Below, in pieces: positions 36,913 to 64,000 of a stretch of 64,000 bases of DNA. Below the pieces are notes generated by a model, which worked only from the letters and a program-made list of their open reading frames with translations, had not been told where the DNA came from and ran no database searches. The stretch is from positions 1-64,000 of the IMG/VR virus record IMGVR_UViG_3300032579_000010; one strand, 5' to 3'. Position 1 is the stretch's first letter. Every line of letters starts with the position of its first letter. Source of the stretch: a virus. The position numbers were made by a program, and so were the translations under genes.

Positions 36913-36919
36913 CATTTCA

Positions 36920-37965: not shown

Positions 37966-38036
37966 GTAGCACCGTTCCTTCTAGTGGGGATTTCACCACC
38001 AGTTTAGAACAGGTTTGCTTTTACGCCGTTGTGAGA

Positions 38037-38819
38037 TTATGCCTCTACATCCTCTGGTTTGTTCCTGCCAACGGCTATTTGATGTTCAGGAAACGGGTTT
38101 CCCCAAGCGTCCAAACCACGGAAATAAAGGCGACCTGCTTCGTGGGGTTTTGTTTTGTCTTCGTTGCCACGAAGCCGTGAGAACTCACGAACCGTAGCCG
38201 CCTCGGCGGTGATTTGTTCCTCGCTAAACATTTCGTCGGCATAGACCATTGAGAACTCGTCAGCGAAGTGACGTGGAACCATTACAAAAGCACCGATTGG
38301 CTCACCTTTGCGGAAGTGGATGTCAAGGTTCGGCTCCGTGATTTTGAGGTTGAACGTGAAGTCTCGCCTTAGGTTGTCAGTTTCCACCACCCCCGTCATA
38401 TGGGTAATGCCACGCTTAAAGAAGTTGGGTGGGTTGATAGTCATAATGTTCACGCCAATGGGGGTGCGAATGTGCCAGTTGTTTTGTACCGTAAAAATGC
38501 CAGAACCAAAGTGTCCCTCGTAGTTCTGAATGGGGTTTTCCACCTTTTGCCAGTCAACGGTTACGTCCGTATTTGCGTCGCCCCCGTTCCAACGAACAGT
38601 CAAGTCAGTTTCAGCACGGACGACAAACCCGTACTGGTTGCCAATGGCTAGCGGTAGGCAGTAATAGAAGTGCGAGTTAAACCAATCACGACGACGCTGA
38701 CCAGCCAACGGCTCTAACAACTTGCTGATGCGTTCTTTGCTCTTGCCGTATTCGGGCAAGACGACCATTGTTTTCTCTGGGATTTCAGCACCAGACTCGT
38801 TGATGGCAGTCTCGTTCAT
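38037..38819 (-). CDS. DUF6065-like protein (paralog A)
   Basis: YYCLPLAIGNQYGF, PPNFF, GVVETD, KGEPI. Confidence 0.65.
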   Translation of the reverse strand: MNETAINESGAEIPEKTMVVLPEYGKSKERISKLLEPLAGQRRRDWFNSHFYYCLPLAIGNQYGFVVRAETDLTVRWNGGDANTDVTVDWQKVENPIQNYEGHFGSGIFTVQNNWHIRTPIGVNIMTINPPNFFKRGITHMTGVVETDNLRRDFTFNLKITEPNLDIHFRKGEPIGAFVMVPRHFADEFSMVYADEMFSEEQITAEAATVREFSRLRGNEDKTKPHEAGRLYFRGLDAWGNPFPEHQIAVGRNKPEDVEA

Positions 38820-39574
38820 TTTTTGGGCTTTCTTATGAATACTTGGTGGTCGCTAAAAGGGTTTTCAAATGCGTCAACCCCACGTCGGTAATGGTTTTCA
38901 GGACTACCGGGGATAGAGCGCAGTCTGTCGTGTTCGTCTCCCGATGACAACTCGGTGGCGATTTCATCAGGCGTGTAAAACTCGTCCGCAAAGTGTAGCG
39001 AGAAACTATCTACAAAGTACCTAGGAATCAGTATGAACGAGGCTATCGGCTCACCCTTTTTGAAGTGAATAAGCAAATCTGGCTCGGTGATTTTTAGATT
39101 AAAAATGAAGTTCCGACGCAGATTGTCCGTCTCTATTACCCCAGTCATGTGGTGAACGCCACGCTTGAACCAGTTGGGTGGCTGTACGGTCATAAGGTTC
39201 ACGCCGAGTGGTGTCCGTAGCAACCAGCGATGCTCGATAGTTACTGTAGCCCAGCCAAAATGTGATTTGTATTCTTGTACGTCATTCCACTGTTGGTCAT
39301 GTAACACCTCTACGTCGTCTGGCGTGTTTCCACCATTCCATAGTACGGAGAAGTCGTTTTCCGCCCTTATGACAAAGCCGTATTGGTTGCCAATAAGCAT
39401 TGGAAGGCAACGAAACATAGAGCCTGACATCCAATCACGTTTCTTTTCACCAACCAAAGGCTGTAGAAGTTCCAAACAACGTTGCTTCTCCTCTTCGCCC
39501 GTCAAGTAGGGAATAAGCAACAAAGTATTTTCGGGAATCTCTTTGCCCTCTGAGTTGATAATGGGCTGGCTCAT
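38816..39574 (-). CDS. DUF6065-like protein (paralog B)
   Basis: FRCLPMLIGNQYGF, PPNWF, GVIETD; aligns by eye with paralog A over its whole length. Confidence 0.65.
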   Translation of the reverse strand: MSQPIINSEGKEIPENTLLLIPYLTGEEEKQRCLELLQPLVGEKKRDWMSGSMFRCLPMLIGNQYGFVIRAENDFSVLWNGGNTPDDVEVLHDQQWNDVQEYKSHFGWATVTIEHRWLLRTPLGVNLMTVQPPNWFKRGVHHMTGVIETDNLRRNFIFNLKITEPDLLIHFKKGEPIASFILIPRYFVDSFSLHFADEFYTPDEIATELSSGDEHDRLRSIPGSPENHYRRGVDAFENPFSDHQVFIRKPKK

Positions 39575-40167
39575 TTGGAAAGGGAATCCGCCATTGTTGG
39601 GTCAAAGCACCAGAAACCAGCGCAGGTATAGCGAGTGGCGTTTTTCACCTGACGAACCCCGTGCAACCACTCGGTTGTGCCGGGGAAACTCACCATCATT
39701 CCCGGCTCGCCAATGACTTCCATATCTTGATTGGGGAAGTAAGTTCCACCACCCTCGTAATCGTCGTTCAAATAAATGATTGAGGCGTACCTGCGCCAAG
39801 GGTAGGGGTTTGGTGAACCGTCAGGTTCCTCTGCGTCAGCGTGGGGTGGCTGTTCCGTACCTTCGGGCCAACGAACCAGTTGAAAGGTGTCGGTGTACAA
39901 GGGTAGTGTGAGTTGCCGTGTTACCGTAATGTGGTCACGGATTCGTTTGTGAATGTCAACAAGGGTTTCGTAGACCTTTATTGAACGTTGGTCATTTTTT
40001 ATTTCACCAAAACGACCAATCGTGTTGGCGAACATCGCCCTGCCGTTCCAAAAAGGCTGGTCTGGTGAAGACCAATCCCACTGGTCGTGAGAGTACTCGC
40101 TCTTAGCGTGGTCGAGAAGGATTTTCACCTCGTCCTCGCTAATGAAGTTTGGGTTGACAGAAATCAT
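39571..40167 (-). CDS. Fe(II)/2OG oxygenase, prolyl-4-hydroxylase-like
   Basis: HAD...IIYLNDDYEGG...HGV....RY. Confidence 0.85.
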   Translation of the reverse strand: MISVNPNFISEDEVKILLDHAKSEYSHDQWDWSSPDQPFWNGRAMFANTIGRFGEIKNDQRSIKVYETLVDIHKRIRDHITVTRQLTLPLYTDTFQLVRWPEGTEQPPHADAEEPDGSPNPYPWRRYASIIYLNDDYEGGGTYFPNQDMEVIGEPGMMVSFPGTTEWLHGVRQVKNATRYTCAGFWCFDPTMADSLSK

Positions 40168-40913
40168 TTATTTCCCCTTACTAGGCGGTAAAACTTTTTT
40201 GAATAACTGTTTTTGCGGTAAGTGTTCTTTTGGTTTCGCCACTCTTCGTCGTATCCTTGAGCGTTGGAGTTCATTTCACTATACCCCTCACGAGTAGCCA
40301 GCAAAAGACCGGGGCGATACTCAAGGGAGTAATCCTCTCGCTTGAACGGGATTATTTGTACGAATGGTGTTCCAGCAGGAATAACGCCCTCAAAGTCATT
40401 GCGCAAGTAAAACGCAATCTTGCCCGTTGGCATTTTGTAGTACCCGTCCATTACGGCAGACAGGGTGATAAACGGCACGTCAAACCTGTTGAGGGGCTGT
40501 GTGAACAAGCAACTGTAGCCTTCGGGGATTTCCAGCGAAAGCCTGTTATCCCAAGAGAACGATACGGGGCTGTAACCGTGGGGGGCTGGCATCATTCCTA
40601 CGTCGTTGGCTTGACGCTCACCCATTACCTCAGAGGCGGAACTCATCCGCAACACTCCGTTTTCTTTGGTGACTATGTATTCCTCAGGGGTGAGAAGCAA
40701 ATACCCGATAGTAAGTGCCTCAATAAAGGGTAGGCAGTGTTTGACCGAAGGCATTTCACCACCGTCGACGCTTTTGAAAACAAGGGGGATTTTCTTGTAC
40801 CAGTCAGGAACAAGTTGTGAGGTTGATTCGATTATTGGGTTGTCGCCGCAATGGTCAAGGTCGTAATAAAAAGTGACCTTTTCACCGCTACCAGTACTTG
40901 TCGAAGTTTCCAT
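40164..40913 (-). CDS. DUF6065-related CLP-motif protein
   Basis: PDWYK, KHCLPFIEALTIGY, PLNR, GTPFVQIIPFKRE. Confidence 0.55.
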   Translation of the reverse strand: METSTSTGSGEKVTFYYDLDHCGDNPIIESTSQLVPDWYKKIPLVFKSVDGGEMPSVKHCLPFIEALTIGYLLLTPEEYIVTKENGVLRMSSASEVMGERQANDVGMMPAPHGYSPVSFSWDNRLSLEIPEGYSCLFTQPLNRFDVPFITLSAVMDGYYKMPTGKIAFYLRNDFEGVIPAGTPFVQIIPFKREDYSLEYRPGLLLATREGYSEMNSNAQGYDEEWRNQKNTYRKNSYSKKFYRLVRGNK

Positions 40914-41616
40914 TTAAGTGTGCATCACCAAGATATTTGGGCGTTACGTTACGGCACCAGAAGGCTGTATTAACGTAACGAACTCCATTGGCAATAGGGT
41001 TAATGCCGTGCGGATTCTCCACCGTTCCCTCAAAAATGACTAATAAACCCGGCTTGGGCTTAATCATAAAGTTATTGTGTCGAGGGAAGTAGATTTCACC
41101 ACCATCAAAGTCGCCGCTGAGATACAACATACTGGTGTAGTGCTTTTGAGTGTTGTAAATGCGGTAGATTTCCTCGGCGGCAGGTGGGAACCACATTTCG
41201 TTGTAATCAGCAGGCAGGTCAGTTTCACGGTTGAAGTCAGGATTTATGTAGTCAATGTGTGGTTGTTGCCAGAATGGTTCGTGCCACCGCACGATTTCCC
41301 ACGACTCAAGGAAGATGCTGTCGTGAGTCCTCTCAAAGAAGTTTTCCACCTCAATGCGTGAGCGTTCCTTAACGTCCCAAGCGAGAGAAAGCAGTTCGGG
41401 GCAAAGGCGAAGCGAGGCAATCTGGTGAAGGTCAATAACCCTGTCGTTCCACTGCGTGTTGAACTGAGCACGGTGCTCTTCCTTTATGTCGCTATCTACG
41501 CCAATGTTGGCGATTGACCATAAATCCGATTTCTTGGACTCTTCAATCAGGAACTCACAGTTTTCAGTACTAATGAAGTTCTCAATAATCCTTACTTTGG
41601 GCGATTCGTAGTCCAT
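40888..41616 (-). CDS. Fe(II)/2OG oxygenase, prolyl-4-hydroxylase-like
   Basis: HID...LYLSGDFDGGE...HGI....RY. Confidence 0.85.
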   Translation of the reverse strand: MDYESPKVRIIENFISTENCEFLIEESKKSDLWSIANIGVDSDIKEEHRAQFNTQWNDRVIDLHQIASLRLCPELLSLAWDVKERSRIEVENFFERTHDSIFLESWEIVRWHEPFWQQPHIDYINPDFNRETDLPADYNEMWFPPAAEEIYRIYNTQKHYTSMLYLSGDFDGGEIYFPRHNNFMIKPKPGLLVIFEGTVENPHGINPIANGVRYVNTAFWCRNVTPKYLGDAHLNGNFDKYW

Positions 41617-42179
41617 TGTTCCTCCGTAACTTGACCACGGATTACATCAATGTAATCTGGTCCTTTTGTGTAAAACCAGTGGTCAGGCTCTACAAAATGA
41701 AAAAACACCATGCCAACAATCTGGTTCTCTGGGTCGGGTATTGCCTCACGCCAGTGCTCCTGTTCATTCCCGTAGTAGGCAAGGGCTTGGTTGGGCATAA
41801 GTGTGTAGGACTTGCCTTCGACAAACAAGTCCCAAGGACGGTTTTGATACAGGCACATATCTAGCGTGTAGGTGCAAGCGTTATCGTCTTTGTGGTGGAA
41901 AAGGTTGGGTATTGCGTTGCCATTTTTTTGGTATTGGGCAAAAAAAGCGTAACTGGGCAGTAGGGAGTGACTATTGAATACCCTGCGAGCCTTCCAAACC
42001 GAGCGAGTAAAAGCCTCACGCAATAGTGGGTTTCTCGTGTCGCTTAGGCAGTACCGACCAAATCCCTCGTCGTAAGAGTTCTCCTGAACAATGACGGATT
42101 TCAGTGCCTCAGAAATGTACTCGTAGTAGTGAGGCTCAAATAGATTATCAACGATTACGGGTTCTCTCATTTTACCCAC
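41592..42179 (-). CDS. Fe(II)/2OG oxygenase-like protein
   Basis: HKD..CTYT...HWRE...FFHF. Confidence 0.7.
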   Translation of the reverse strand: MGKMREPVIVDNLFEPHYYEYISEALKSVIVQENSYDEGFGRYCLSDTRNPLLREAFTRSVWKARRVFNSHSLLPSYAFFAQYQKNGNAIPNLFHHKDDNACTYTLDMCLYQNRPWDLFVEGKSYTLMPNQALAYYGNEQEHWREAIPDPENQIVGMVFFHFVEPDHWFYTKGPDYIDVIRGQVTEEQWTTNRPK

Positions 42180-42775
42180 TGCACTATTGCGTATCGGGTG
42201 CCACGCATAACGGGCATCACCTCGTGTGTGTACATAAAGTTTGATGGAAAAATAATCAACTGCTTGGCTTGTGGCTTAATGCTTAATCCAAAGTTGTCAA
42301 ACAGGATTTCACCACCCTCGTAATCATCATTGACGTAGTAGCAAAGCGAGACACGACGAAGGAGCGCACTACCGTCGTCGCAGTGGTCACGGAAACGCTG
42401 TCCAAACCCATATCGAAGGATTGAAAAGTCCTCGTACACATTCTCTAGGTCAACATTGTATTTTTGCTTGTACTGGTCGTAGTAAGGGGCAAAGGCTTCG
42501 TAAAGTTTTTGAGACACAAACACCTTCAACCAATCAGGTGATTCTTTCAGAGGCATTGGCTCGTCTTTGATTGGCTGAGGCGCTGTATAAACAAAGCAGT
42601 TTCGTGATTTCGTATTAACAAAACCTTCACCGTTTTCACCAATGACCATAGACGGTTCCCAAAGGCTCACAAGACCCTGAGATTCCTGCTCAATCAAGTC
42701 AATAATGCTATTGCTTGTTGGAAAGACGTTGTATGCGGTGACAATGCCGGGGGCGATTTCTGTAAACTGTTCCAC
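42167..42775 (-). CDS. Fe(II)/2OG oxygenase, prolyl-4-hydroxylase-like
   Basis: HCD...YVNDDYEGGE...FPSNFMYTHEV....RY. Confidence 0.85.
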   Translation of the reverse strand: MEQFTEIAPGIVTAYNVFPTSNSIIDLIEQESQGLVSLWEPSMVIGENGEGFVNTKSRNCFVYTAPQPIKDEPMPLKESPDWLKVFVSQKLYEAFAPYYDQYKQKYNVDLENVYEDFSILRYGFGQRFRDHCDDGSALLRRVSLCYYVNDDYEGGEILFDNFGLSIKPQAKQLIIFPSNFMYTHEVMPVMRGTRYAIVQWVK

Positions 42776-42803
42776 ATCACCACACTACAGCATAAACCAC
42801 CCT

Positions 42804-43349
42804 CTACGCCGAGGGCATAAAGTCACCAAAAACGACGGCAGCCCTTTGTCTTGTAAGACTTTTCACCTCGTGGTCTACGCCACTGGGCATAAAGAGGATG
42901 TCGCCGGGTTCTAATACAAACTCGTAGTTTTCACCATGACCTTTTCGAGTGTCCCATAGTTGCCACGAGGAACGACCAACGCAGTTCAAGTGGAACATAT
43001 TGCTATGGTCGGCGTGTCTAGTTACGCCCGTTAAGGCATCGCCTTCATTGGACTCGGAAATAAACATATACATAGAAACACCAAAGGTTTCGTCACGGAT
43101 ACTGTCTAGTTCGTTCCAAACAAACCTCAGTCCGTTTAGTTGGTCGAGGTGTTTCTCAAACTCTATACCGTCGAAATACACGGCACAAAATGTTCCTTCG
43201 GGGTAAGCAACTGCCCACGGTGGTGGGTTATCCCGAAGAGGAACAAGTTGCTTCCAATCAGGCATTTCAGTAACTAGACCACGAATAACAACGGGTTTGG
43301 ATAGGTCTAGTGATGAAATGTGCTCGGAAAAGGTAGCCATAGAACCCAC
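42804..43349 (-). CDS. JmjC/cupin-type hydroxylase
   Basis: HAD.......G...W...LEPGDILFMPSGVDHEV. Confidence 0.8.
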   Translation of the reverse strand: MGSMATFSEHISSLDLSKPVVIRGLVTEMPDWKQLVPLRDNPPPWAVAYPEGTFCAVYFDGIEFEKHLDQLNGLRFVWNELDSIRDETFGVSMYMFISESNEGDALTGVTRHADHSNMFHLNCVGRSSWQLWDTRKGHGENYEFVLEPGDILFMPSGVDHEVKSLTRQRAAVVFGDFMPSA

Positions 43350-43355
43350 CCCCGA

Positions 43356-44453
43356 TTATTGCGGAGTGGGTTCTATGTACTGATAGCCCGATGCGACCTT
43401 TATGTTGTGCGTCAAGATTCCAGCACCAAAAAACAGGTCATTTGGACCAACGGTCAGTTTTGACACCAAAACGTTTGCCGAAACAATCTCGACAGAGGTA
43501 ATCGGTATCGCCTGAAGTTCCTCGTTCATCAAGAGGTCGCCAATCTGCATTGACCACGCCCTCATGAACTGCCAAACGCCAGCACGATTCACGAACACAA
43601 AGTGGTCACCCGTCAAACTGATTTGGTCGTTGAAGGTGTAGTAGCCAGAAGCGCCAATGTCGGTGTTTGCCTGAACAATAGTGGTTTCGTAGGTTGTTTG
43701 ACCTATTTGCGAATCCGGTACCGACCAAACCGACGCTGGGTACCAAAGGTTAACTATTTCACCATTTGGATACGTCGGAATAACCGCTGTCTTTAGCACG
43801 TCGCCAACTTGAACGTCCTCAATGTTTTTGAGCGTACCGTCAGCCATGAGAATCGGAGTTCCGTGGATAAAGCATCCACCCCTAGGTGGCGGCACTGGCG
43901 GCGGAACTGGTGGCGGAACGTATGGCGGAACGTATGGCGGCTTTGGTGGCGGAACGTAGGGCGGAACGTAGGGCGCAATGTAGGGTGGCGTATAAGGCGG
44001 CGGAACGGGCGGCGGAACGTAGGGCGGCGGAACGGGTGGCGGAACGTAGGGCGGCGTATAAGGTGGCGGAACGTAGGGCGGCGTATAAGGCGGCGGAACG
44101 TAGTTAGGGACATCTGAACCGCTATACGCAGAATACCCACTGCTTCCAGCATTATTCACGGCCGCTACGGCGTATTCGTATGTGTAGTTAGCAGAAAAAC
44201 CGTAACTAACTAGCGCAGGACTTGAGGTGAAACCTGCCTGATACGAAACAACGGTTCCCGTATTGACGCAGTAAATCGCAACAGTAAATGTCTTTGCTTT
44301 GGAGCCGTTTGGGTTTGGCGTGAAGTAAACATTCACCTGAGTTCCACTTACAACGGACGGTGAGCCAATAGTGGGCGTATTAGGAGGCTTGATTAGAAAG
44401 TCGCCAGAGTCATCTGCCGACATACTCCCTCGTGCGCCAATAATAGGACTCAT
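43356..44453 (-). CDS. FN3 + extensin-like Pro/Tyr repeat + Hint (BIL/Hedgehog-like) domain protein
   Basis: FN3 (PTIG...YEYAVAAVNNAG), (YVPPP)n, GG|CFIHGT, TGDH, ILTHN. Confidence 0.85.
   Translation of the reverse strand: MSPIIGARGSMSADDSGDFLIKPPNTPTIGSPSVVSGTQVNVYFTPNPNGSKAKTFTVAIYCVNTGTVVSYQAGFTSSPALVSYGFSANYTYEYAVAAVNNAGSSGYSAYSGSDVPNYVPPPYTPPYVPPPYTPPYVPPPVPPPYVPPPVPPPYTPPYIAPYVPPYVPPPKPPYVPPYVPPPVPPPVPPPRGGCFIHGTPILMADGTLKNIEDVQVGDVLKTAVIPTYPNGEIVNLWYPASVWSVPDSQIGQTTYETTIVQANTDIGASGYYTFNDQISLTGDHFVFVNRAGVWQFMRAWSMQIGDLLMNEELQAIPITSVEIVSANVLVSKLTVGPNDLFFGAGILTHNIKVASGYQYIEPTPQ
43884..44108 (-). repeat. Coding repeat of PPPYV/PPYT/PPPV units (12-15 bp)
   Basis: GGCGGAACGTAG-type units on the + strand. 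Confidence 0.9.
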
Positions 44454-44467
44454 AACCCTACTTTACA

Positions 44468-47400
44468 CTAAAACTGGGTAAGTGAGGCAAAGATAACATA
44501 CGTTGCGTTTGCTGTCTTGGTAATAGTGAAGTTGTAAGCGTCATACCCGTTGGCGTATCCGTTGGTTGGGTAACCCAGACCACCAGCCCAGTAAATCGAG
44601 GACTGCGAACCGTCAATGTAGACCGTATTACAGTAGTACGAAGCACCAGAACCACCCTGAAGCACCATTACGGCAACCGTCACACTTTGACCAACTGAAA
44701 GAAGGCTGTTGAGTGTTGAGCCACCCGAAGTTCCTGTGAAGTTGAACTGGAAGGTGTTGGTTGCCTGTGAGGTGAACAACACAAGCGAGCCTTGACCCGT
44801 CAAGTAGATGGTTTGTACACCGTTCGGGCTGTTGCTGTTGAGGTACGTCGTTTCGATTGGCGAGGTGAATACCGTGTTAATGGTCGTCGCTGGTGTACCT
44901 TGGTAGCCCTGATTTCCCTGATAACCTTGATTTCCTTGGTATCCTTGCGGTCCTTGAGCACCAGTCGAGCCAGTGATACCTTGGTATCCCTGAACACCCT
45001 GCGCACCAGTTGAACCCTGAGCACCAGTAAATCCTTGGAATCCTTGGTTTCCTTGAGTACCTTGATAGCCCTGCGAACCAGTCGCACCTTGGTAGCCCTG
45101 AGGTCCGGTGGCACCAGTGTTGCCCTGATACCCCTGATACCCCTGCGCACCCTTTTGACCGTCAACATTTACCGTCCAAGTAGAACTTGTGCCTGAGCCA
45201 GTTACCGTGGCGACATTGACCACCAGAGCGCCTGTAGAGGCGTTGTATGAGGCGACCAGACCGACCATTGTTCCAACGGTAGAGACGAGCGATACGCCCT
45301 GTCCTGCCGTGTAAGCCAGACCAGTTCCTACGGTGAGGGTTTGAGAACCAGTACCAATGGTGAGCGAGGTTGTACTTGTCGTGGCGAATGAAGCGCCTTG
45401 GTACCCTTGGTATCCCTGATAGCCCTGAGTACCCTGCGGACCAGTTTGTCCTTGAGCACCCTGAGGACCGTAGCCACCAGTAGAACCTGTTGAACCTTGA
45501 TAACCCTGAGTACCTTGCGTTCCTTGGTAGCCCTGAACACCTTGGCTACCCGTTGCGCCTTGCGCACCCGTGTACCCTTGTAATCCTTGAGCGCCCTGAA
45601 CACCTTGATAACCGATAGCGCCCTGAACACCCTGTGCTCCTTGGTTACCAGTCGCACCAGTAGAACCCTGATAGCCCTGCGCTCCTTGAGCACCTTGCAG
45701 ACCAGTTACACCTTGAACACCCTGCGTACCCTGAGCACCAGTGCTACCTTGGGCACCAGTTAGACCCTGCGTACCTTGCGGACCATAGCCACCAGTAGAA
45801 CCAGTGTTTCCTTGGAAGCCTTGGTTACCCTGACTTCCTTGAAAGCCTTGGAAACCCTGCGCACCAGTCGTACCCTGAGCACCTGTGTATCCCTGATAAC
45901 CCTGTGGTCCTTGTGCTCCCTGAGCACCTGTAGCGCCCGTGGCACCTTGAACACCTTGGTTACCAGTTGCACCCGTGTAGCCTTGCGTACCTTGCGTACC
46001 TTGGGCACCAGTAGCACCCGTCAGACCTTGCGAGCCTTGTGGTCCAATGCCACCAGTGGCACCAACGTTACCTTGGTAGCCTTGATAACCTTGTGCGCCC
46101 TGATACCCTTGAACACCTTGAGCGCCAGTTGAACCTTGCGCACCAGTCGTTCCTTGGTATCCCTGAGCACCCTGAGAACCAGTGGCTCCCGTGGAACCTT
46201 GAACACCCTGAGTACCCTGTGCCCCAGTAAAGCCTTGGTAGCCCTGTGCACCTTGCGTTCCTGTAGCACCAGTAGCACCTTGTACACCTTGAGTACCTTG
46301 CGCACCAGTAAAGCCCTGATAACCCTGACTTCCCTGCGCACCAGTAGACCCTTGGTATCCTTGGTAACCCTGATAACCACGAGTACCTTGGTTACCCTGC
46401 GAACCCTGCGGACCTGTGAAGCCTCGGAATCCTTGGTAACCCTGAACTCCCTGAATACCAGAGAGCGAGAAGTACCAGTTGCTGATTGTGCCAGTGGCAC
46501 CTTCGCCTGAGTAGCCAGTCAGCGAGATGGTGAACTCGAAGCCCGAACCACCAGCATTGACAACGCTGTAGATAAAGCCTGTGTAGAAAACCGCTACACC
46601 GTCAGTGTCGTTTCCAGCAAGCGTTACTGCTTGACCCGTGTAGTACGAGTCGGTAGTTGCGTTGTAGAACACTGCCGTTGAGCCAACATCTGCGCCAGTT
46701 GCGTCAAGGGCAGAAACAGTGGTGATTGCGTAGGCTGGGAAGTCTGCGCCCTGAACACCCTGAACACCTTGGTGTCCTTGCGTACCCTGACTACCCTGAA
46801 CACCTTGGTATCCCTGAAGTCCTTGGTAACCCTGAGCACCTTGGCTACCTGTGTAGCCCTGATACCCTTGAGCACCCTGAACTCCTTGGTAACCAATGGC
46901 TCCTTGGTAGCCTTGAGCACCCTGCGAACCTGTCGCACCTGTGTATCCTTGGCTACCTTGTGCACCAGTCGAGCCTTGGTAACCCTGCGTACCTTGTGCG
47001 CCTTGGTAACCCTGAGCACCGCTGGCACCCTGATTACCTTGCGGACCTTGGACGGTACCAACGCTAATCCACTGGCTTTCAGCAGTAGACCAAACATAAA
47101 CGTCTGGACCAACAATGTACGCCGTGCCCGGTACGTCTGGACCAGTGGGCCAAGCCGCTTCCAGTGCTGATTCGGACGAGTAGGTTCCTTGAATGTTGAA
47201 CGCCGTACCAGCGTTACCTTGGTAGCCTTGCGTACCTTGGTAACCCTGCGGACCGAGAATGTCAGCAACTTCCTGCCACTCGTTTAGTTCAGCGTTCCAC
47301 GCATAGACCTGACCAACAATGACATAGACCTGACCAGTAATGGCTGGACCACTTGGGTGGGCAGAAGTGAGGTCTTCGATAGTGTCGTAGGAACCAGCGA

Positions 47401-55798: not shown

Positions 55799-55889
55799 TA
55801 AAGACCCTTGCTGCTAGAGGGGCGTAATCCCAACGTTTTCTAGACCAAATCTTACAACGGATTTTGGGAAACCCACGTTTAAGATTTCA

Positions 55890-58800
55890 CTAGTTCACTG
55901 GCACTGCAAAACCAGAAAGCCACGTTGATGACTGGTTTGGCGTTACGTTTCCGCTTGTGTCAATCGTAACGTAGGTCATGTTGGCGGTTCCGTACTGCTG
56001 TGCAACATAAGTCGCTTGGTATGCTGGGCGGTATCCAGAAGGCAGGGTAAAGGCGGTCTGACCGGCTGTTCCACCAGAAATAGCGCCAACCATGTAAACA
56101 ACGTTGTTTATCCGCCTATAGTAAACCGAGTCACCGCTGACCGCCGAGAAGCCATTGCTGAACGAAGTAACCTGAATCCAGCCCGTATCGCCCAAGGAAA
56201 CGCCATTGTGCGTACCAGCGACATTGAGGTTTCCGCTGTCGTCAAGCGAGAAAATGGTGGTGTTGTAGGCGTTATTGACGATTTCCAGCCCACCGTTATT
56301 GTTCATACGGATTGACTTTTGAGGGTTGGAAGCACCTGAGTTTGTGTTCGTCAAGGTCATTAGACCTGCGTAGTTAGAACCACCGTGACCGTTGGATGAC
56401 TGAATCGTCAGTGGGTCGGTATTGGTTGTGGTGGAAATGGCTAGGTCAAGAGGCGCTGTAGGCGTTGCACCTTGGCTTCCTTGCGAACCCTGAAAGCCTT
56501 GGGCACCCTGAGCGCCGATAGTGGCGTAGGTTAAGGCAGTTCCACTTGAGTTGACTACCAGAGCCTGACCTTGCGTACCAAGGGTCGTTAAACCAGTTCC
56601 ACCGTGGGCGATTGGCAACGTGTTCACAAGGTCATCAGCGTCAGCCGACGTAATCATGTACCAGTTTCCACCATTGTAGTTAATGAACTGGTACGCTCCA
56701 TTAACGGGAACTGTGTATGACGTTACGGGCGAAGAAGAGCCAATGTCGTACATAGCATTACTGGTGAATCCAAGATTGACCGTTACGGAGGCACGGTTAA
56801 TAACACGCCACGTTGCGTTTGCTGTGGCTGGTGGCGCAGTAATGGTCTGACCAGAAGTTGAGCCAGTAAAGAGGGTGGCTTCGTTAACATTTGCGGTTGC
56901 TGATGATGAACGTAAGGTTACAACCTGCGAACCAGCATTTCCTTGGTAGCCCTGATACCCCTGATTTCCTTGTGTGCCTTGGCTTCCAGCGACACCTTGG
57001 TGACCCTGTGTTCCTTGGTAACCTTGCGTACCCTGAGCGCCTGTGTAACCTTGCGTTCCGTTAGCACCTTGGTTCCCTTGCGTACCAGTTGAGCCTTGTG
57101 CTCCTACAGAGCCTTGAGCGCCAGTAGCACCCTGCGCACCTTGAGCACCCTGCGCTCCGTCAGCACCGCTAGTGCCTTGGTAGCCCTGTGCTCCTTGAGA
57201 GCCAGTAGCACCCTGCGGACCAGTATCACCACGGAAACCAGTCGTTCCCTGTGCGCCCTGAACACCAGTCGGTCCTTGTGAACCTGTCGTGCCTTGTACG
57301 CCCTGTGAACCTTGTGAGCCTTGTGACCCAGTGATTCCTTGGGTTCCCTGAACCCCCTGCGTTCCTTGTACGCCTTGGGTACCCTGTGAACCTTGGTAAC
57401 CTTGCGTACCTTGTACGCCGGGGATTCCACTTAGGTTGATGTTCCAAGAACTGACGGGGTTGCTGTAGGGCGAAACCTGCGTCGCTTTCAACTCAAGGGT
57501 GCCGTCGCTTGACGTGTAGCCAATGACGGATGCGGTCATAAAGATTGTTGCGTCAGAACTGTCGCAAATGACAACCGATTCGCCGTTTGTGTATGAAAGG
57601 TTTTCACCAACCGTGATTACAAATACGTCATTGAGCGAAATGGTCGAGAGGGTCAGCGTGTTGGTCGAAGTGGTCTGATAAACAGCACCTTGGTAGCCTT
57701 GGACACCTTGTGTTCCCTGAACGCCTTGGTAGCCTTGCGAGCCTTGATACCCCTGCGCACCTTGTACGCCCTGAACTCCTTGTGAGCCTTGGGTTCCGAT
57801 TCCACCTTGGGCACCCTGAGCACCTTGTAGTGCGGTAGCAGGAGTTGTTTCGTCCAGCCAGAGAACTGATGTGTCGCTCGGCGGCACTCCGTCGTCTGAA
57901 TCGTAGATACCACGGTCACCGATTTCACCTTGGTAACCTTGCGTCCCCTGATAACCCTGATAACCCTGAGGTCCAATAATGTTCGCAACGGCGACCCACA
58001 CCATTGTGTTGATTTCCCAGACGTAGAGTTGCCCCTGAACAACGTATGAGTTGCTTTGGTCAACTGGTCCGGTTGGAAAGGCGGCTTCTAGGTCAGCGAG
58101 TGTGTCGTATTCACCTTGAATGTTGGTGGCTTGACCAGCCGTTCCCTGATAACCCTGATTACCTTGGTAACCCTGCGAGCCAGTAGAGCCTTGTGGTCCT
58201 TGATACCCTTGAGCACCAGTCTGACCTTGGTTGCCTTGATAACCTTGATAGCCCTGATTTCCTTGAAATCCCTGAACACCTTGGTTGCCTTGATAACCTT
58301 GATATCCTTGATTTCCTTGAAATCCCTGAACACCTTGAGAACCTTGTACGCCTTGATTTCCCTGCGTACCTTGGAATCCTTGATTACCTTGGCTACCTGT
58401 TGCACCCTGACTTCCTTGTGAACCAGTGGTACCTTGAGCACCTTGGTACCCCTGAGCGCCCTGTGCTCCCGTCGAACCTTGCGAGCCTTGGCTACCAGTA
58501 GAACCTTGGAACCCTTGGTTGCCTTGGAACCCTTGATTTCCTTTCGAGCCTTGTACGCCTTGGCTACCCTGAGAGCCTTGCTGACCCTGATAACCCTGAA
58601 AACCCTGCGGACCAACGGCACCGTCAAGGTTTACCGTCCAAGACGAACCCGATGGTGAACCAATAATGTCGTCAGAGGAGGCGATGTTATAAGTCAGTGA
58701 GCCAGTTGAAGGGTTGTACGAAAGAACGGTGGCGTTGAAGTAGTTGTTTGAGTCAACGGCGACAACAATCGTTTGTGGTGATGAGTAGGCAAGACCAGTG

Positions 58801-60938
58801 CCGACAACGAGTGACGAGTTTCCAACAGTGACACTCGGAATGTTTGTTGTACTTGACGTTGAGTAAACATCACCAGCAATACCTTGATAACCCTGCGTTC
58901 CTTGATAACCCTGATTACCTTGTGGTCCGTAACCACCTGTGGAACCAGTGACACCTTGATACCCTTGGTGACCTTGCGTACCTTGGTTTCCTTGATAGCC
59001 TTGCGGTCCTTGTGAACCTGTAGAACCCTGTGAACCTGTAGAACCCTGCGCACCTGTCGAACCTTGGGTACCTTGATTACCTGTTACACCAATAACACCT
59101 TGGGTACCTTGGTAACCTTGAAAACCTTGGTATCCCTGCGCACCCTGCGAGCCAGTTGCACCAGTTGAGCCTTGTACACCTTGGGTACCTTGTACGCCCT
59201 GTGTTCCTTGATAGCCCTGAAAACCTTGATTTCCTTGCGAACCTGTAGCACCAGTTGTTCCTTGTGCACCTGTTACACCCTGACTACCTTGGTAGCCTTG
59301 AGCACCTTGCGACCCAGTAGCGCCTTGAACGCCTTGCGAACCAGTCGAACCTTGACTTCCCTGTACGCCTGTGGCACCTTGTGAACCCGTGGAACCTTGG
59401 TATCCCTGTACGCCTTGATTCCCCTGAGTGCCTTGTGCGCCAGTTAGACCCTGAACACCTTGATTGCCTTGAACACCTTGTGTGCCTTGGTATCCCTGCG
59501 GCCCGGTAGCACCAGTAGCGCCCTGATTTCCTTGGGTACCTTGGTAACCAGTTGAACCCTGCGGTCCGGTAGCACCTTGGCTACCTTGTGAGCCTTGAAC
59601 ACCAGTTTGTCCTTGCGCACCAGTTTGTCCTTGGTACCCTTGGTTGCCTTGTGCCCCAGTGGAACCCTGAGCGCCTGTTACGCCTTGAGCACCTGTGGCT
59701 CCTTGGACACCCTGATTACCTTGCGGTCCAGTTGAGCCTGTTGTTCCTTGATAGCCTTGTGCGCCCTGCTGTCCGGTGTCACCCTTGACACCTTGATAGC
59801 CCTGAAATCCCTGCGTACCTTGCAGACCAGTTGCACCTTGAACACCCTGCGCACCAGTGACACCGATTACACCTTGAGTACCTTGTGGCCCTTGCGCTCC
59901 TGTAACACCAGTCGCACCTTGGTAACCTTGCGCTCCTGTAACACCAGTTACACCTTGATAGCCTTGGCTACCTTGTACACCTTGTAAGCCTTGAGAACCA
60001 GTTGAACCTTGAGCACCCTGTGGTCCGGTAGCACCCGTTAGACCAGTCGTGCCTTGCGTTCCTTGCGGACCAGTTGCTCCCGTCGAGCCTTGGTAACCCT
60101 GATTTCCTTGGGAACCAGTGGCACCTGTAGAGCCTTGTACGCCCTGCGTACCTTGATACCCTTGGCTTCCCTGAGCGCCTGTACTTCCTTGCGCTCCTGT
60201 ACTTCCCTGAGCACCCGTTACACCTTGGTAACCCTGATGACCCTGCGTTCCTTGCGCACCCGTGCTTCCCGTAGCGCCTTGTGCGCCAGTAACACCTTGC
60301 GGACCTTGTGTGCCCTGCGCACCAGTGGCTCCTGTACTACCTGTAGCGCCTTGCGAACCCTGTTGTCCAGTTGCGCCCGTCGAACCTTGAGTGCCTTGCA
60401 CTCCTTGGCTACCTTGAGCACCTTGAACACCCTGATACCCACGAGCACCTGCGGCACTCCAAGCCAACGAGCCGTCTGACTGTATGGTGAGGACTTCGCC
60501 CTGCGTACCGACACCGAGACGAGATAGTTCGTTTTCACCACTACCGACGAGTAAGTCGCCAGATGCTTGGATTTGTCCAATGGTATTGGCAACCGCTTTG
60601 TTGGCTTCAGCAAAGTCAATGGCAGTCGAAACTGGTGCGACAACGGCGTTGACGGGGTGGGTAAGGGCAAGTGTGCCGTCAGCACCACGTTGAACGCCAG
60701 TGAGGGTAACGGTGAGGGCTGTCCAGTTGTATGAACCAGCCGGTACATAAATCTTTTCCTCGTTTTCAGTACCAATACTGATGTCAAGGAAGAAGCCACC
60801 GCCTACGCCCAGCCCAGCCCAGCCACCAGTGGTGTTGGTGAGGACTACTGTGGTCGAGGTGTTGTCAAGGGCGTCATACAGAAATGCGTTTGGTGCGGCA
60901 CCAACGTAACTATTCTGTGTGTAAGAAGCCCTTGCCAT
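55890..60938 (-). CDS. 1682-aa collagen-like fibre with C-terminal receptor-binding-type head domain
   Basis: N-terminal RGADGT.A..H anchor domain, long GXQ runs, C-terminal DTGW...YRRINNVVY...FTLPSGYRP. Confidence 0.85.
58872..60449 (-). repeat. Uninterrupted Gly-X-Y run (~175 triplets)
   Basis: Translation GARGYQG...GYQGIAG with no break in Gly periodicity. Confidence 0.9.
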
Positions 60939-61013
60939 TATTCCACCACTTCACGACTAGGTTTAGACGATGGCGCTAGTCTGAAGCAATCTTACCCCAG
61001 CCTTTGATTTTCT

Positions 61014-62273
61014 CTAAGCCCCTAACTGACCGCCAAATCGCTCTGAGTCGTCCTTAATGGCAATCAGATTGGCGCAAACATAGGGAATCTGATGGGTCTG
61101 GTGCCAAGGGCTTGGATAGAACGTCATCATACGGCTCTTTTGGAAATCAGTCTTGATTTCGGGAACGTACTTGCGGTAGTTAGCGTCAATCCAGTACCAA
61201 AAACTGTTTTCGTTATAGAAAGCGTTGTGGGTTGGGTCTTGGTAAGCGCCTCGCCCGTCAGTACTAGGGGTGAGTGTGAGCAACATTCCACCTTGAGCCA
61301 AGACTCGGTACATTTCGTTCCACAGGCAAACTTTGTCAGGAATGTGCTCTAGGAAGTCAGCAGCACGGATTACACCAACCGTGCCGTCCTCCATGTCGCC
61401 CAAAACGTTGAAAATGTCGCCAACTAGGTCGGCTGGCTCGTGCATATCCACCGACAAGAAGCCGGGCGCTGGGTTGTGCGCCGCACCGAGGTCAAGTGCT
61501 AGCAAGTTGTTGTCTTTTGCCCATTTCACTGACATTTCCATGATGTTGCGGTCATAGATTTCGACAGTCTTTTGTTGTATTTCGTTGTTTAGTTCCTGCT
61601 GAGCCTGACTCTGCTCGCTGTGGAGGCGCTGTAGGTACAACTTCTTTTGAATGTGGTGAAACTTTGTAACCTTGTAGAAGCGCACCATAATGTCAGCGTC
61701 GTCGCAAATGCGTAGAGACTTGTTGTATCCGCCGATTTTCTTGTACGTTGCAGCACGAAAGGCTCGCAAGTGGTTCGGAGCAAACCAAATGTAGGCGACG
61801 TGGTGGGGGTGTGGTGACTTTCCTTCACAAACGTGGTGTCCGTCCTCGTCGTCGTAGTAAGACCAGCCGTAAGAACGGTCAAACTCACGCTTGCTGGGGT
61901 TGCCTTGCTCGTCTATTTCAGCAAAGTCTGAATAAACAAATCCGACCTCTGCGTCTGCGTCAAATGCCTTTTGCACTTCCTCTAGCGCCGTCGGCATCAA
62001 AAGGTCGTCATGGTCAAGTTCGATAAGGATTTCACCACTACAAAGGGCGACTGCCTCGTTCTTAAGGGTGCCGATAACGGGCTTTGACTTTGTGGTGTGG
62101 ACTTTGACACGCTCGTCGTCTTGGTCGTACCAATCGTTTTCGCCTTCGAGGGCGTTACCGTTCAGTAACACCACCCATTCCCAGTCGGTAACAGTCTGGG
62201 CAACAAGGCTTTCGTAGCAGGTTCGTAACCATTTGGTGTTGTGACTTGGTGTGAAGATAGATAACATTTCCAT
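61014..62273 (-). CDS. GT2-family glycosyltransferase fused to a SAM-methyltransferase-like domain
   Basis: LSIFTPSHN, ELDHDD (DxD), CDDAD; C-terminal LDLGA, DFLEH, DPTH. Confidence 0.8.
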   Translation of the reverse strand: MEMLSIFTPSHNTKWLRTCYESLVAQTVTDWEWVVLLNGNALEGENDWYDQDDERVKVHTTKSKPVIGTLKNEAVALCSGEILIELDHDDLLMPTALEEVQKAFDADAEVGFVYSDFAEIDEQGNPSKREFDRSYGWSYYDDEDGHHVCEGKSPHPHHVAYIWFAPNHLRAFRAATYKKIGGYNKSLRICDDADIMVRFYKVTKFHHIQKKLYLQRLHSEQSQAQQELNNEIQQKTVEIYDRNIMEMSVKWAKDNNLLALDLGAAHNPAPGFLSVDMHEPADLVGDIFNVLGDMEDGTVGVIRAADFLEHIPDKVCLWNEMYRVLAQGGMLLTLTPSTDGRGAYQDPTHNAFYNENSFWYWIDANYRKYVPEIKTDFQKSRMMTFYPSPWHQTHQIPYVCANLIAIKDDSERFGGQLGA

Positions 62274-62306
62274 ACCCTACATCATTTCAGTAACACTCGT
62301 TGGGTT

Positions 62307-63998
62307 TTAGAACTCGATTGAGATTGAGGCGTTGCCACCACCGCCCACTGAACCTAGCCAATAAACGTAACTGTAAGGACCGATTGTTCCCGTGTAGGCA
62401 GGAGGCGTTCCGCCAATGGTGGGTGTTAATGAGTAGGCAGAAGTCAGCCAGTATAGCAATACAACGCCACCAGAGCCAGACCAGCCATAGCCATAAGTTG
62501 AACCGGGGCCACCAGCACCGGTGCCGTTTCCACCAGTCCCATTGGCACCTGAGGTGTTGGAACCCGGCCCGCCTTGTCCGGGATAAAAACCAAGAGAGTT
62601 AAGGGGCGAAGGGAGCCACGCAGTTGCGGACGATGCTGAAGCACCGCCATTACCGGGGACTGTGCTGGTCGTCTGCGGCGTTGAACTTCCGCCAGCACCG
62701 CCTGTTCCACCGCCACCGCCACCGGCGTACTTTGAGCCAGCACCACCGGCGTAACCTTGCGGTGAACCGCTGGCGCCACCTGAACCCTTGTAAGTTCCGA
62801 CTGACCCGCCACCAGCACCGCCGTTACCAGAATGAGCGTTGAACGTACTAGTTCCACCATTACCGCCAGTTGAACTGGTACTTGTAGTTCCAGTTCCGCC
62901 GTTCCCAACCAAACCTGAATAGTTGGTGCCAACTGTTGCGGTCATAGCAGCGTTGACATAGCCACCTGCGCCACCCCCCGTGTAAGCGCCTCCGCCTCCG
63001 CCTCCGCCTTGAACGTAGTAGTTGAGAGTAAAGGTAGAAGGTGGGGGTGGTGGGAGTGGTGGGGGTGGTGGGGGTGGTATGACAGGATTAGGTATTACTG
63101 AACTAGTTGAACTACTAAGCGCAGAGTTTCCAGCGCCGTTAGTTGCATAAACAGAAAAACTGTAAGAGGTTCCCTGAGAAAAGGTTTCAGTAATAGTCAG
63201 GGGACTGCTTGTTCCATTGACTATCGCACCAGTAACGTTGTCATGAACCGTGTAACTTGTCGGCGCTGAATAGTTTGTTACGTCCCCAACAGAGAATGAG
63301 ACTTGGACTTGAGTTGTGCTCACAACTGACGCTGAACCTATTGTGGGTGTCGCTGGCACGGTAAAGAACTGGTAAGTAGTGCTTGAAGCGCTTTGTGACG
63401 CTCCTGAGGCGTTATACGCATCAACTACAAACGAGTAGTACTGGTTTGCTGATGCCGAAAAGGTAAAGGAAGTCGAGTTGCTTCCTCCATAAGCAACTGT
63501 CGCATAGTTGTTGCCCAAAGTGTCCATGACGGAATAACCAGTCGGCGTATTTCCATTGGTGATTGTGCCCGGTGTCCAAGAAATAGCAACCGAAGCCGTA
63601 GCCGTCGAACCAGAAGAGGAAACGTGTGGAGAACTGTTGCCAGATATTGTTTGTGGGGTGAAGGCGGAGATGGTTGGAGACGATGGCGGATTGAAAGGTA
63701 TTACAGAGTTACTCACATTCTGAGCGCCCCAAATAGTTGCGTTTTCACCAGCACTGTTTTGAGAAACAACTGCGTAGTAGTAAGGGACATTTGGGGCGTA
63801 GACGAATGAACCGGGGTAAATAAACGCTGTGTTTGTACCAAACGCAACAGTGGTAACCAAGGAATAACTTGATGAACTCGTTCCACAGTAAACCAAGTAT
63901 TGCGTTGGTTGATTTTTAGACGTGGACGTAGGCGCTGTCCAAGAAACCGCTACTTCAGTAGTTGTAACAACAGAAGCATTTACCCCTGTTGGGTTGTT
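62307..63998 (-). CDS. FN3-repeat + polyproline + glycine-rich domain virion protein (5' partial)
   Basis: The frame stays open to the window edge. At least 3 FN3-like units, PPPPPPPLPPPPP, GGGGGG..GGGAGG glycine-rich tip. Confidence 0.8.
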   Translation of the reverse strand, partial: NNPTGVNASVVTTTEVAVSWTAPTSTSKNQPTQYLVYCGTSSSSYSLVTTVAFGTNTAFIYPGSFVYAPNVPYYYAVVSQNSAGENATIWGAQNVSNSVIPFNPPSSPTISAFTPQTISGNSSPHVSSSGSTATASVAISWTPGTITNGNTPTGYSVMDTLGNNYATVAYGGSNSTSFTFSASANQYYSFVVDAYNASGASQSASSTTYQFFTVPATPTIGSASVVSTTQVQVSFSVGDVTNYSAPTSYTVHDNVTGAIVNGTSSPLTITETFSQGTSYSFSVYATNGAGNSALSSSTSSVIPNPVIPPPPPPPLPPPPPSTFTLNYYVQGGGGGGGAYTGGGAGGYVNAAMTATVGTNYSGLVGNGGTGTTSTSSTGGNGGTSTFNAHSGNGGAGGGSVGTYKGSGGASGSPQGYAGGAGSKYAGGGGGGTGGAGGSSTPQTTSTVPGNGGASASSATAWLPSPLNSLGFYPGQGGPGSNTSGANGTGGNGTGAGGPGSTYGYGWSGSGGVVLLYWLTSAYSLTPTIGGTPPAYTGTIGPYSYVYWLGSVGGGGNASISIEF

Positions 63999-64000
63999 TG

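Follow-up and report, generated by a model that had tools for sequence, protein, structure and literature searches.

Phage genomes, especially aquatic ones, are rich in 2-oxoglutarate (2OG)-Fe(II) oxygenase genes, which are usually filed as auxiliary metabolic genes. Here we describe a gene island of the IMG/VR virus record IMGVR_UViG_3300032579_000010, in which such oxygenases are encoded in a chain with proteins of the DUF6065 family, next to a polyproline protein ending in a Hint domain and to giant collagen-like proteins. The window, that is, the whole stretch of DNA analysed, is the first 64 kb (positions 1 to 64,000) of one 95,015-bp contig, and the island runs on the minus strand from position 38,037 to the window end and beyond it. 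On the basis of gene content, conserved synteny, fold and family assignments and catalytic residues, we read the island as the hypervariable virion-appendage region of a siphovirus-like lake phage, which would hold two linked substrate-plus-enzyme modules rather than one pathway, a joint reading to which we assign a probability of about 0.55.

Relation to described systems

In the chlorovirus PBCV-1, a viral prolyl 4-hydroxylase (P4H) hydroxylates viral Pro-rich repeats in vitro (Eriksson et al., 1999, as summarised in PMC3634087), and the island shares with it a virus-encoded P4H-type Fe/2OG oxygenase together with virus-encoded Pro-rich repeats as the likely substrate. PBCV-1, however, is a eukaryotic giant virus using a single enzyme, without DUF6065, Hint or tight gene adjacency, and its P4H was not among the PDB sequence matches at E <= 1 of the three PF13640 enzymes of the island; the kinship is at family level only. 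The Skp1 pathway of Dictyostelium and Toxoplasma employs the P4H PhyA and the GT60 enzyme Gnt1 (PMC3515798, PMC11570480). A P4H-type oxygenase likewise adjoins a PF11397 (GT60) gene in 19 of 80 related viral loci, which fits a sequence from Pro to hydroxyproline to O-GlcNAc, whereas the present genome is without GT60, its candidate substrate is a repetitive polyproline rod instead of a single proline of a regulatory protein, and the Skp1 pathway has no DUF6065 counterpart.

Collagen-like proteins offer two further comparisons. Mimivirus collagen is hydroxylated and glycosylated, with L230 as a lysyl hydroxylase-glucosyltransferase (PMC8968730; PMC5802723, PMC9546862), and in both cases a virus encodes collagen-like fibres along with enzymes that could modify them. 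In contrast to the substrates of L230 and of animal LH3, the collagens described here carry Lys at only 4 of 799 Y positions, and no LH-type domain is encoded; LH3 is a marginal PDB match (E 0.04) for the 202-amino-acid (aa) oxygenase. In BclA of the Bacillus exosporium, GXT repeats are O-glycosylated on Thr (reviewed in PMC8968730). Like BclA, the proteins of the island are prokaryotic-type collagens that have Thr at the Y position (163/799) and end in a globular domain, and a putative dedicated glycosyltransferase is encoded close by. They differ from BclA in that Gln dominates the Y position (553/799) and in being 5 to 10 times longer, with repeated globular modules.

For the dioxygenase arrays of cyanophage Syn9, Iyer, Abhiman, de Souza and Aravind (2010, PMC2938197) proposed metabolite synthesis and named no protein substrate; for hydroxylases of bacteria, these authors predicted that collagen-like or tail-collar proteins encoded alongside are modified. 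The island resembles the Syn9 array in joining several classical 2OG oxygenases to one MINA/No66-type JmjC enzyme, and differs from it in its syntenic link to a polyproline-Hint candidate substrate and to DUF6065 as a partner. The Hint domain, finally, is like bacterial-intein-like (BIL) and Hedgehog-type domains (2LWY) in its Cys1 after Gly, its TxxH block, its C-terminal His-Asn and its lack of a homing endonuclease and of a +1 nucleophile, although here it caps the polyproline rod of a phage protein and is followed by 3-15 non-conserved residues past His-Asn.

In our literature search, no paper was found on such a hydroxylase-appendage system in tailed phages, and no mention of DUF6065. What is new relative to the known viral systems is the presence of DUF6065 as a partner and of Hint as a cap. 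Particular to this island are the three giant GXQ collagens adjoining the cassette, the separate linkage of the glycosyltransferase fusion with collagens, and the enlarged set of five oxygenases and three DUF6065-type proteins between capsid and neck genes.

Gene content of the island

The original prediction, made from the letters of the window, had outlined a co-oriented island of about 26 kb in which fibre proteins and tailoring enzymes together give a hydroxylated, glycosylated and possibly methyl-capped coat. All 13 of its genes do lie on the minus strand where they had been placed, every listed element is present in the transcription order described, and seven of the eight enzyme-like genes form a chain from 42775 down to 38037 with overlaps of 4-26 nt. 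The extent of about 26 kb holds within the window; on the full contig the island spans about 30 kb, because a third collagen gene beyond the window belongs to it, so that the two giant collagens that had been recognized become three. The features, in transcription order, are as follows (E-values in brackets).

Genome 64058-68230 (L001:2058-6230), minus strand: third collagen-like giant, 1390 aa (Pfam Collagen 3.7e-69; 159 GXY triplets)
62307..64000, start at 64085 outside the window, minus strand: protein of FN3 (2-3 copies), polyproline linker and Gly_rich_2, 592 aa (fn3 3.8e-08, Gly_rich_2 1.2e-07)
Within 62307-64085, minus strand: linker of the 592-aa protein, IPPPPPPPLPPPPPS
61014..62273, minus strand: glycosyltransferase family 2 (GT2) domain fused to a divergent class I methyltransferase-like domain (GT2-MT), 419 aa (GT2 1.4e-12, Methyltransf_11 2.6e-04)
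55890..60938, minus strand: collagen-like fibre protein with globular C-terminal domain, 1682 aa (Pfam Collagen 7.9e-142; 317 GXY triplets, longest run 176)
44468..55798, minus strand: giant collagen-like fibre protein, 3776 aa (Pfam Collagen 8.9e-123; 323 triplets)
43356..44453, minus strand: FN3-like, (PPYVPP/PPYTPP)n and Hint protein, 365 aa, candidate hydroxylase substrate (sequence, FN3 likeness, homologues in loci L003, L004 and L005)
43884..44108, minus strand: Pro/Tyr/Val/Thr tract of about 75 aa in the 365-aa protein (sequence)
43359..43883, minus strand: Hint (bacterial-intein-like) domain of the same protein, no endonuclease (RGG|C junction, TGDH block B, THN then Ile)
42804..43349, minus strand: JmjC-type cupin oxygenase, 181 aa, HAD...H (Pfam JmjC_2 1.1e-08)
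42167..42775, minus strand: prolyl-hydroxylase-type Fe/2OG oxygenase, 202 aa, HCD...H...R (PF13640 4.4e-16)
41592..42179, minus strand: divergent protein with a predicted 2OG-oxygenase fold, 195 aa (model with predicted local distance difference test, pLDDT, 86; Foldseek)
40888..41616, minus strand: prolyl-hydroxylase-type Fe/2OG oxygenase, 242 aa, HID...H...R (PF13640 3.5e-07)
40164..40913, minus strand: divergent DUF6065-like protein with CLP motif, 249 aa (phrog_7084 8.1e-28)
39571..40167, minus strand: prolyl-hydroxylase-type Fe/2OG oxygenase, 198 aa (PF13640 4.3e-09)
38816..39574, minus strand: DUF6065 protein, 252 aa (PF19541 6.3e-38)
38037..38819, minus strand: DUF6065 protein, 260 aa, predicted dUTPase-like fold (PF19541 6.3e-41)

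Conserved synteny of oxygenase, DUF6065 and polyproline genes

A profile built from 15 DUF6065 relatives retrieved 338 relatives in IMG/VR, and the best 80 of these 338 loci were examined, which correspond to 34 lineages after dereplication at 85% DUF6065 identity. Directly upstream of DUF6065, a PF13640-type oxygenase of the 198-aa kind is found in 32 of the 34 viral lineages. Open reading frames (ORFs) on the same strand within 5 kb were counted as Pro-rich if they held at least 16 Pro in 40 aa, and upstream counts were confined to lineages whose sequence reaches 3 kb or more upstream. With these definitions, a Pro-rich ORF lies upstream of the pair in 14/24 lineages and downstream in 0/28 (Fisher p = 1e-06), and relaxed limits add three more, namely L003 and L004, where the Pro-rich gene is just over 5 kb upstream, and L082, with 15 Pro in 40. 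The Pro-rich proteins of the relatives are long and modular, with FN3, PASTA or Hint domains and tracts of the types P(20-30), VPPP, TPPP and PPYV. The cassette comes after three tail-fibre-like genes in L064 and before the portal gene in L017.

Two further families join the cassette among the 80 loci. The GT60 genes found in 19 of them belong to PF11397, a family that includes the Skp1 hydroxyproline GlcNAc-transferase, and DUF6171, a small Cys-rich protein (C..C...C..CGC...CP.GKW), is encoded between the polyproline gene and the oxygenase in 49 (for example L036:7601-7828 and L017:7073-7318, plus 47 other viral loci). Collagen-like ORFs, in contrast, occur within 10 kb of the oxygenase-DUF6065 pair in only 5/34 lineages. 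The original prediction had suggested looking for adjacency of both kinds of substrate gene to the enzymes across phages; such adjacency was found for the Pro-rich ORFs and extends to GT60, and is rare for collagen. Related phages that carry the enzymes without the substrate genes, named there as the outcome that would speak against it, are thus what we observe for collagen, and mostly not for the Pro-rich genes.

The synteny also bears on the possibility that the oxygenases serve auxiliary or secondary metabolism, or act on a host protein or a free amino acid, and came to lie near the fibres via a shared hypervariable region. Metabolite synthesis is what Iyer et al. (2010, PMC2938197) propose for phage arrays of tandem 2OG and MINA-type JmjC enzymes, the PHROG labels name these families auxiliary metabolic genes, Pro-rich ORFs are missing near the pair in part of the viral loci and in most of the cellular ones, and a sodium:solute symporter stands beside it in gammaproteobacterial metagenome-assembled genomes (MAGs). 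We nevertheless regard this explanation as unlikely, because it leaves unexplained the directional same-strand Pro-rich linkage, the GT60 polypeptide transferases that join the cassette, and the fusions of DUF6065 to the peptide-binding cyclophilin and TPR domains; moreover, Pfam and PHROG scans of the island revealed no non-ribosomal peptide synthetase, halogenase or transporter gene. The preference for virion modification over auxiliary metabolism in the original prediction is therefore retained in so far as the module lies among virion genes, is linked to polyproline genes and is akin to prolyl hydroxylases, and lacks support for collagen hydroxylation.

Polyproline proteins and the Hint domain

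In the real genes of the 95-kb genome, polyproline tracts occur in two only, both of them FN3 proteins of the island, and the FN3-like N-terminus of the 365-aa protein shares 39% identity with the corresponding domain of the 592-aa protein. The tract of the 365-aa protein consists of PPYVPPP/PPYTPP units without Ser-Pro4, and lacks the Ser-Pro(3-5) and YXY signature of plant extensins, so that the term "extensin-like" applied to it earlier describes a resemblance in composition only.

The Pro tract ends in Arg-Gly-Gly and is followed by Cys, a TGDH block and a C-terminal Thr-His-Asn, after which come Ile and a short non-conserved tail. GG|C, TGDH and THN are all present in the Hint alignment, as expected of intein terminal motifs, and a profile of six of these domains is closest to the BIL domain 2LWY (1.5e-08), with the toxin-associated Hint 6Y75 and mini-inteins also matched. 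Residue +1, Ile here, is Phe, Asn or Ile in the relatives; canonical splicing is precluded, since no +1 nucleophile is available. By these sequence features the Hint is a BIL/Hedgehog-type cleaving domain and not a splicing intein, and N-terminal cleavage through a thioester is expected. The autoprocessing foreseen for this domain would hence amount to autocleavage, with the Cys1, TGDH and THN elements in place, and not to canonical splicing. The polyproline-Hint design recurs in separate lineages, degenerate copies included.

Predicted prolyl hydroxylases and related oxygenases

The 198-, 242- and 202-aa proteins score 37.7, 31.5 and 60.1 bits against PF13640 (cut-off 27). In the 198-aa enzyme, H109, D111, H169 and R179, that is, the iron triad and the 2OG-binding Arg, are invariant across 16 sequences, and the other two show HID/HCD...H...R by sequence. 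The solved structures nearest to these three enzymes are those of P3H1, the P4Hs from Bacillus anthracis and Chlamydomonas, PHD2 and PiuC (E 1e-05 to 3e-07): the best solved match of the 198-aa oxygenase is P3H1 (3.5e-07), the 242-aa enzyme matches P3H1 (2.7e-07) and B. anthracis P4H (2e-05), and the 202-aa enzyme matches PiuC, B. anthracis P4H and PHD2. These nearest solved relatives, together with the synteny with polyproline ORFs, indirectly suggest that the PF13640 enzymes may be peptidyl-proline hydroxylases.

The 195-aa protein has no Pfam match; its model (pLDDT 86) finds SnoN, PHD2, OkaE and AlkB in Foldseek at E ~3e-07 and a template modelling (TM) score of ~0.6, and H96, D98 and H142, which supply the HxD...H pattern, are invariant in the family alignment, as is R144. 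This family is phage-only, its Atlas clusters being 100% viral. The JmjC-type protein yields only weak PDB matches, to MINA53 and YcfD of the ribosomal-protein hydroxylase family. The predicted complement of one JmjC and four 2OG oxygenases is thereby borne out, with three PF13640 enzymes, one JmjC_2 protein and the 195-aa protein assigned to the 2OG fold by its model. Complex prediction for the 198-aa oxygenase with DUF6065 returned a score of 0.00, which gives no verdict and is evidence neither way.

DUF6065 as a proposed partner of the oxygenases

The three proteins previously noted for their CLP motif are present in the enzyme chain, two as members of DUF6065 and one as a divergent relative. 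Scores against PF19541 are 140.9 and 131 bits (cut-off 26.6) for the 260- and 252-aa proteins, whereas the 249-aa protein is linked to the family only through phrog_7084, which is also matched by the 260-aa DUF6065, and aligns weakly though collinearly with the DUF6065 profile in hhalign. DUF6065 is not an oxygenase; its model (pLDDT 79) adopts a dUTPase-like fold. When VIA-align compared this model with 48,161 chains, the 14 best matches were dUTPases without exception (Z 9.1-6.8) and dCTP deaminases came next; the dUTPase alignments cover 103-127 residues at a root-mean-square deviation of 2.4-4.3, as expected for a shared fold. Foldseek similarity to dUTPases is weak (E 4e-03), the DUF6065 profile found no dUTPase and only chance matches among PDB sequences at E <= 10, and GVVETD and KGDPIGAF resemble dUTPase motifs III and IV slightly, by eye only. 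None of the loci analysed encoded a dUTPase that could be used for a profile-profile comparison.

More than 1400 metagenome relatives of the 260-aa protein were found. Outside viruses, the family is found in genomes and MAGs of freshwater bacteria, often beside the oxygenase and usually without Pro-rich neighbours. In cellular genomes it is fused to a cyclophilin peptidyl-prolyl isomerase (Planktothrix, followed by a PMT_2 glycosyltransferase), to TPR repeats (three proteins), and to PF13640 (adjoining a 2264-aa Pro-rich ORF); the fusion loci L116:7929-10724, L114:7911-10877, L121:811-5468 and L085:7932-9725 come from cyanobacterial, Obscuribacterales, actinobacterial and Hyphomicrobiaceae genomes. 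Fusions with cyclophilin, TPR and 2OG domains point to prolyl-peptide or protein substrates rather than nucleotides.

These results make it very improbable that DUF6065 and the oxygenases form a base-hypermodification system directed at nucleotides or DNA. The dUTPase-like fold would suit such a role, nucleic acids are the substrates of some 2OG oxygenases (AlkB, TET/JBP), of which AlkB is also among the matches of the 195-aa model, and DUF1599 and deoxyribosyltransferase-like genes lie 25 kb away near the capsid gene. Yet the DUF6065 profile shows no sequence-level similarity to dUTPases, the PF13640 enzymes are nearest to protein prolyl hydroxylases, the fusion partners of DUF6065 bind peptides, and the block stands in the virion module, not in the replication module.

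We may speculate further that DUF6065 is a new class of peptide-modifying enzyme on a dUTPase fold, an obligate partner of the oxygenase on polyproline rods, which might for example modify hydroxyproline with the sugar of a uridine nucleotide or present the rod to the oxygenase, and that the Hint thioester attaches the rod covalently to another virion component. Taken jointly, we hold these proposals to be doubtful. If they were true, the DUF6065-oxygenase-Hint set would be a phage system for post-translationally built appendages with no described counterpart.

Other cellular neighbours of DUF6065 were noted as well. On Hyphomonadaceae and Caulobacteraceae chromosomes, DUF6065 is immediately preceded by a conserved ORF of about 79 aa that has a membrane helix at its C-terminus (L152:7647-7886, L143, L157, L158 and L140); the cellular DUF6065 loci that were checked held no repeat-peptide gene, only this small membrane ORF. 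In the gammaproteobacterial MAG locus L105:5642-7147, a sodium:solute symporter family gene directly precedes the oxygenase-DUF6065 pair, and L093:5538-7082 has an ORF of similar size at that position. The symporter neighbour leaves open a small-molecule substrate in cellular contexts.

Collagen-like giants and the GT2-MT gene

The island devotes about 6850 codons to collagen-like genes. Counting GXY triplets within runs of at least 5, the longest uninterrupted Gly-X-Y runs of the three proteins have 176, 119 and 68 triplets, as is usual for prokaryotic collagen repeats. Over their 799 triplets, the Y position is Gln in 553, Thr in 163, Lys in 4 and Pro in 1, while Pro fills the X position in 52. 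Animal-type substrates have Pro or Lys frequently at Y, which these collagens do not; they are poor classical hydroxylase substrates, because Y is almost always Gln or Thr. By sequence, they are collagens of the prokaryotic type, neither the X-Pro-Gly substrates of collagen prolyl 4-hydroxylase nor the Lys substrates of lysyl hydroxylase.

An N-terminal domain of about 160 aa is common to the 1390- and 1682-aa proteins (44% identity); a homologue search limited to proteins of near length found none, and a subsequent representative search gave 1099 representatives of this domain family, nearly always N-terminal. The 1682-aa protein matches phrog_23837 "virion structural protein" with its N-terminus and minor tail or tail fibre PHROGs with its C-terminus. 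Four globular modules of ~510-600 aa (60-67% identical), separated by GXQ/GXT collagen runs, make up the 3776-aa protein; one such module is also found in the 1390-aa protein, and the module matches the PHROGs "head decoration", "virion structural" and "tail fiber".

The 419-aa protein scores 48.3 bits against the GT2 profile (cut-off 23.3), carries the DxD-type motif DHD at 87-89 (within ELDHDD at 85-90), and has K4 chondroitin polymerase as its nearest solved structure (4.5e-17). Methyltransf_11 aligns only with the C-terminal half of its methyltransferase domain, at 22 bits against a cut-off of 21.2. Relatives of this protein (36-77% identity) were found in 23 viral loci forming 12 lineages, and 8/12 have a GXQ collagen-like or collagen-N-domain gene on the same strand within 10 kb, with direct adjacency in four distant lineages (L178, L179, L180 and L183). 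As collagen genes are near GT2-MT in 8/12 and near DUF6065 in 5/34 lineages (p = 0.0015), we conclude that the glycosyltransferase is associated with the Gln/Thr collagens, for the most part regardless of the oxygenase cassette.

This separate linkage argues against the single pathway of the original prediction, in which the oxygenases would hydroxylate collagens and Pro-rich proteins alike and GT2-MT would glycosylate and methyl-cap them to yield a matrix-like coat, a scheme we judge quite unlikely. It would account for the co-orientation of all genes in one island, for the collagen-like gene that precedes the Hint gene in the closest relatives (L003, L004 and L005), and for the GT2-MT gene that sits inside the enzyme block, among the oxygenases, in L005; the 52 X-position prolines might serve an X-position prolyl 3-hydroxylase such as P3H1, the best solved match of two oxygenases, and five oxygenases suggest several substrates. 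However, Pro and Lys occupy 1 and 4 of the 799 Y positions, collagen-like ORFs accompany the pair in few lineages, the GT2-MT relatives occur with collagens mostly without oxygenases, and the P3H1 matches cover the conserved C-terminal half only, where 3- and 4-hydroxylation are indistinguishable. Across the loci, the number of oxygenases bears no clear relation to the presence of collagen-like ORFs. Collagen hydroxylation by a single pathway thus lacks support, and two modules are preferred.

Two proposed substrate-plus-enzyme modules

The first of the two modules that we propose would comprise 38037-44453 and perhaps also 62307-64085. Its substrate would be the FN3-polyproline-rod-Hint protein, and probably also the FN3-polyproline-Gly-rich protein. 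The prolyl-hydroxylase-type Fe/2OG oxygenases would hydroxylate the rod prolines, each core oxygenase being paired with DUF6065, a partner of predicted dUTPase fold that may act on or bind the same Pro-rich peptide, and the extra oxygenases of the JmjC and 195-aa types would add further hydroxylations. The Hint domain would then cleave itself off at Gly-Gly|Cys via the thioester, leaving a rod with a terminal Gly that would either be free or become attached to a different nucleophile. The second module, 44468-62273 plus 64058-68230, would consist of three trimeric GXQ/GXT collagen-like fibres decorated by the GT2-MT-like enzyme, for which Thr in GXT is the likeliest glycosylation site by analogy with BclA of the Bacillus exosporium.

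Several points weigh against this two-module reading. In 5 to 7 of the 24 viral lineages, as in most cellular loci, the 10 kb around the pair hold no Pro-rich ORF, so that the pair can serve other substrates. Five oxygenases exceed what one or two short Pro tracts need, and the predicted fold of DUF6065 is that of nucleotide hydrolases. No GT60 gene was found in the 95-kb genome with a hidden Markov model from 9 viral GT60 proteins, and DUF6171 is absent from this genome as well as from the cellular loci. In GT2-MT, the position of S-adenosylmethionine (SAM) motif I, (D/E)xGxGxG, is degenerate and reads LDLGAAHN; methylation is doubtful for this reason, and so is the methyl-capping that had been built on this domain. 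The fibre parts match PHROGs of differing labels (head decoration, virion structural, tail fibre, minor tail), which do not settle between head and tail. Finally, every chemical step, the enzyme-substrate pairings, what becomes of the thioester, and the place in the virion are inferred.

Genome context, occurrence and transcription

Gene calls with Pfam and PHROG profile searches showed that the contig is arranged like a siphovirus-like phage. Its minus-strand series opens with the genes for scaffold and major capsid (major capsid 70663-71670; phrog_1005, 1e-95), the island extends from shortly past the major capsid gene to the neck and head-tail connector genes, and downstream of it follow a Neck1-type gene, a head-tail connector gene, two major tail protein genes, a chaperone and the tape measure. 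Promoter and terminator scans of the island gave a signal no better than that of shuffles. The capsid protein is closest to those of Arthrobacter phages, at <=51% identity, and deposited phages gave zero blastn match to the enzyme block and zero tblastn match to DUF6065; given the capsid divergence and the missing nucleotide match, the phage has no close cultured relative. The stretch 38037-44453 was present in full in at least 18 lake-water or freshwater metagenome runs from 2020-2023, which marks the virus as a recurrent lake phage.

In four lake metatranscriptome libraries, contigs match the 3776-aa, Hint, JmjC and first oxygenase genes at 99-100% identity. They fit transcription in nature as weak evidence, DNA carry-over being possible and contigs giving neither strand nor level. 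Over 36001-41300, that is, the last four enzyme genes and genes beyond, such contigs are sparse and absent from some bins, which is not readable as a lack of expression because only contigs at low depth are at hand. Some RNA contigs have joints that skip 2.9-9.6 kb within the 3776-aa gene (window 44468-55798), best explained, as the simplest cause, by assembly collapse across its four 60-67% identical modules.

Two neighbouring regions deserve mention. At window 12886-29324 (minus strand), the tape measure gene is immediately followed by genes for two more giant proteins (3828 and 1670 aa), presumably tail-tip or central fibre proteins, which belong to no Pfam family and match hardly any PHROG. 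The capsid gene is separated from the island by three small genes at genome 68989-70298 (minus strand; L001:6989-8298), which encode DUF1599 ("nucleotide modification associated domain 1"), DUF1003 and a protein of a nucleoside 2-deoxyribosyltransferase-like PHROG and hint at DNA base modification.

Implications for phage oxygenases and appendages

The island and its relatives give phage 2OG oxygenases a concrete candidate substrate, namely a polyproline rod on a protein of the fibre region, and a fixed partner, DUF6065. Hydroxylation and glycosylation of viral appendages have been documented so far only for giant viruses of eukaryotes; if the predicted chemistry is true, tailed phages would hydroxylate, and in some lineages glycosylate, their own appendages. 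The enzymes could then be of use for making hydroxylated proline-rich or collagen-like materials in bacteria, and for the phages themselves, such modification would bear on the protease resistance of their fibres and on host recognition.

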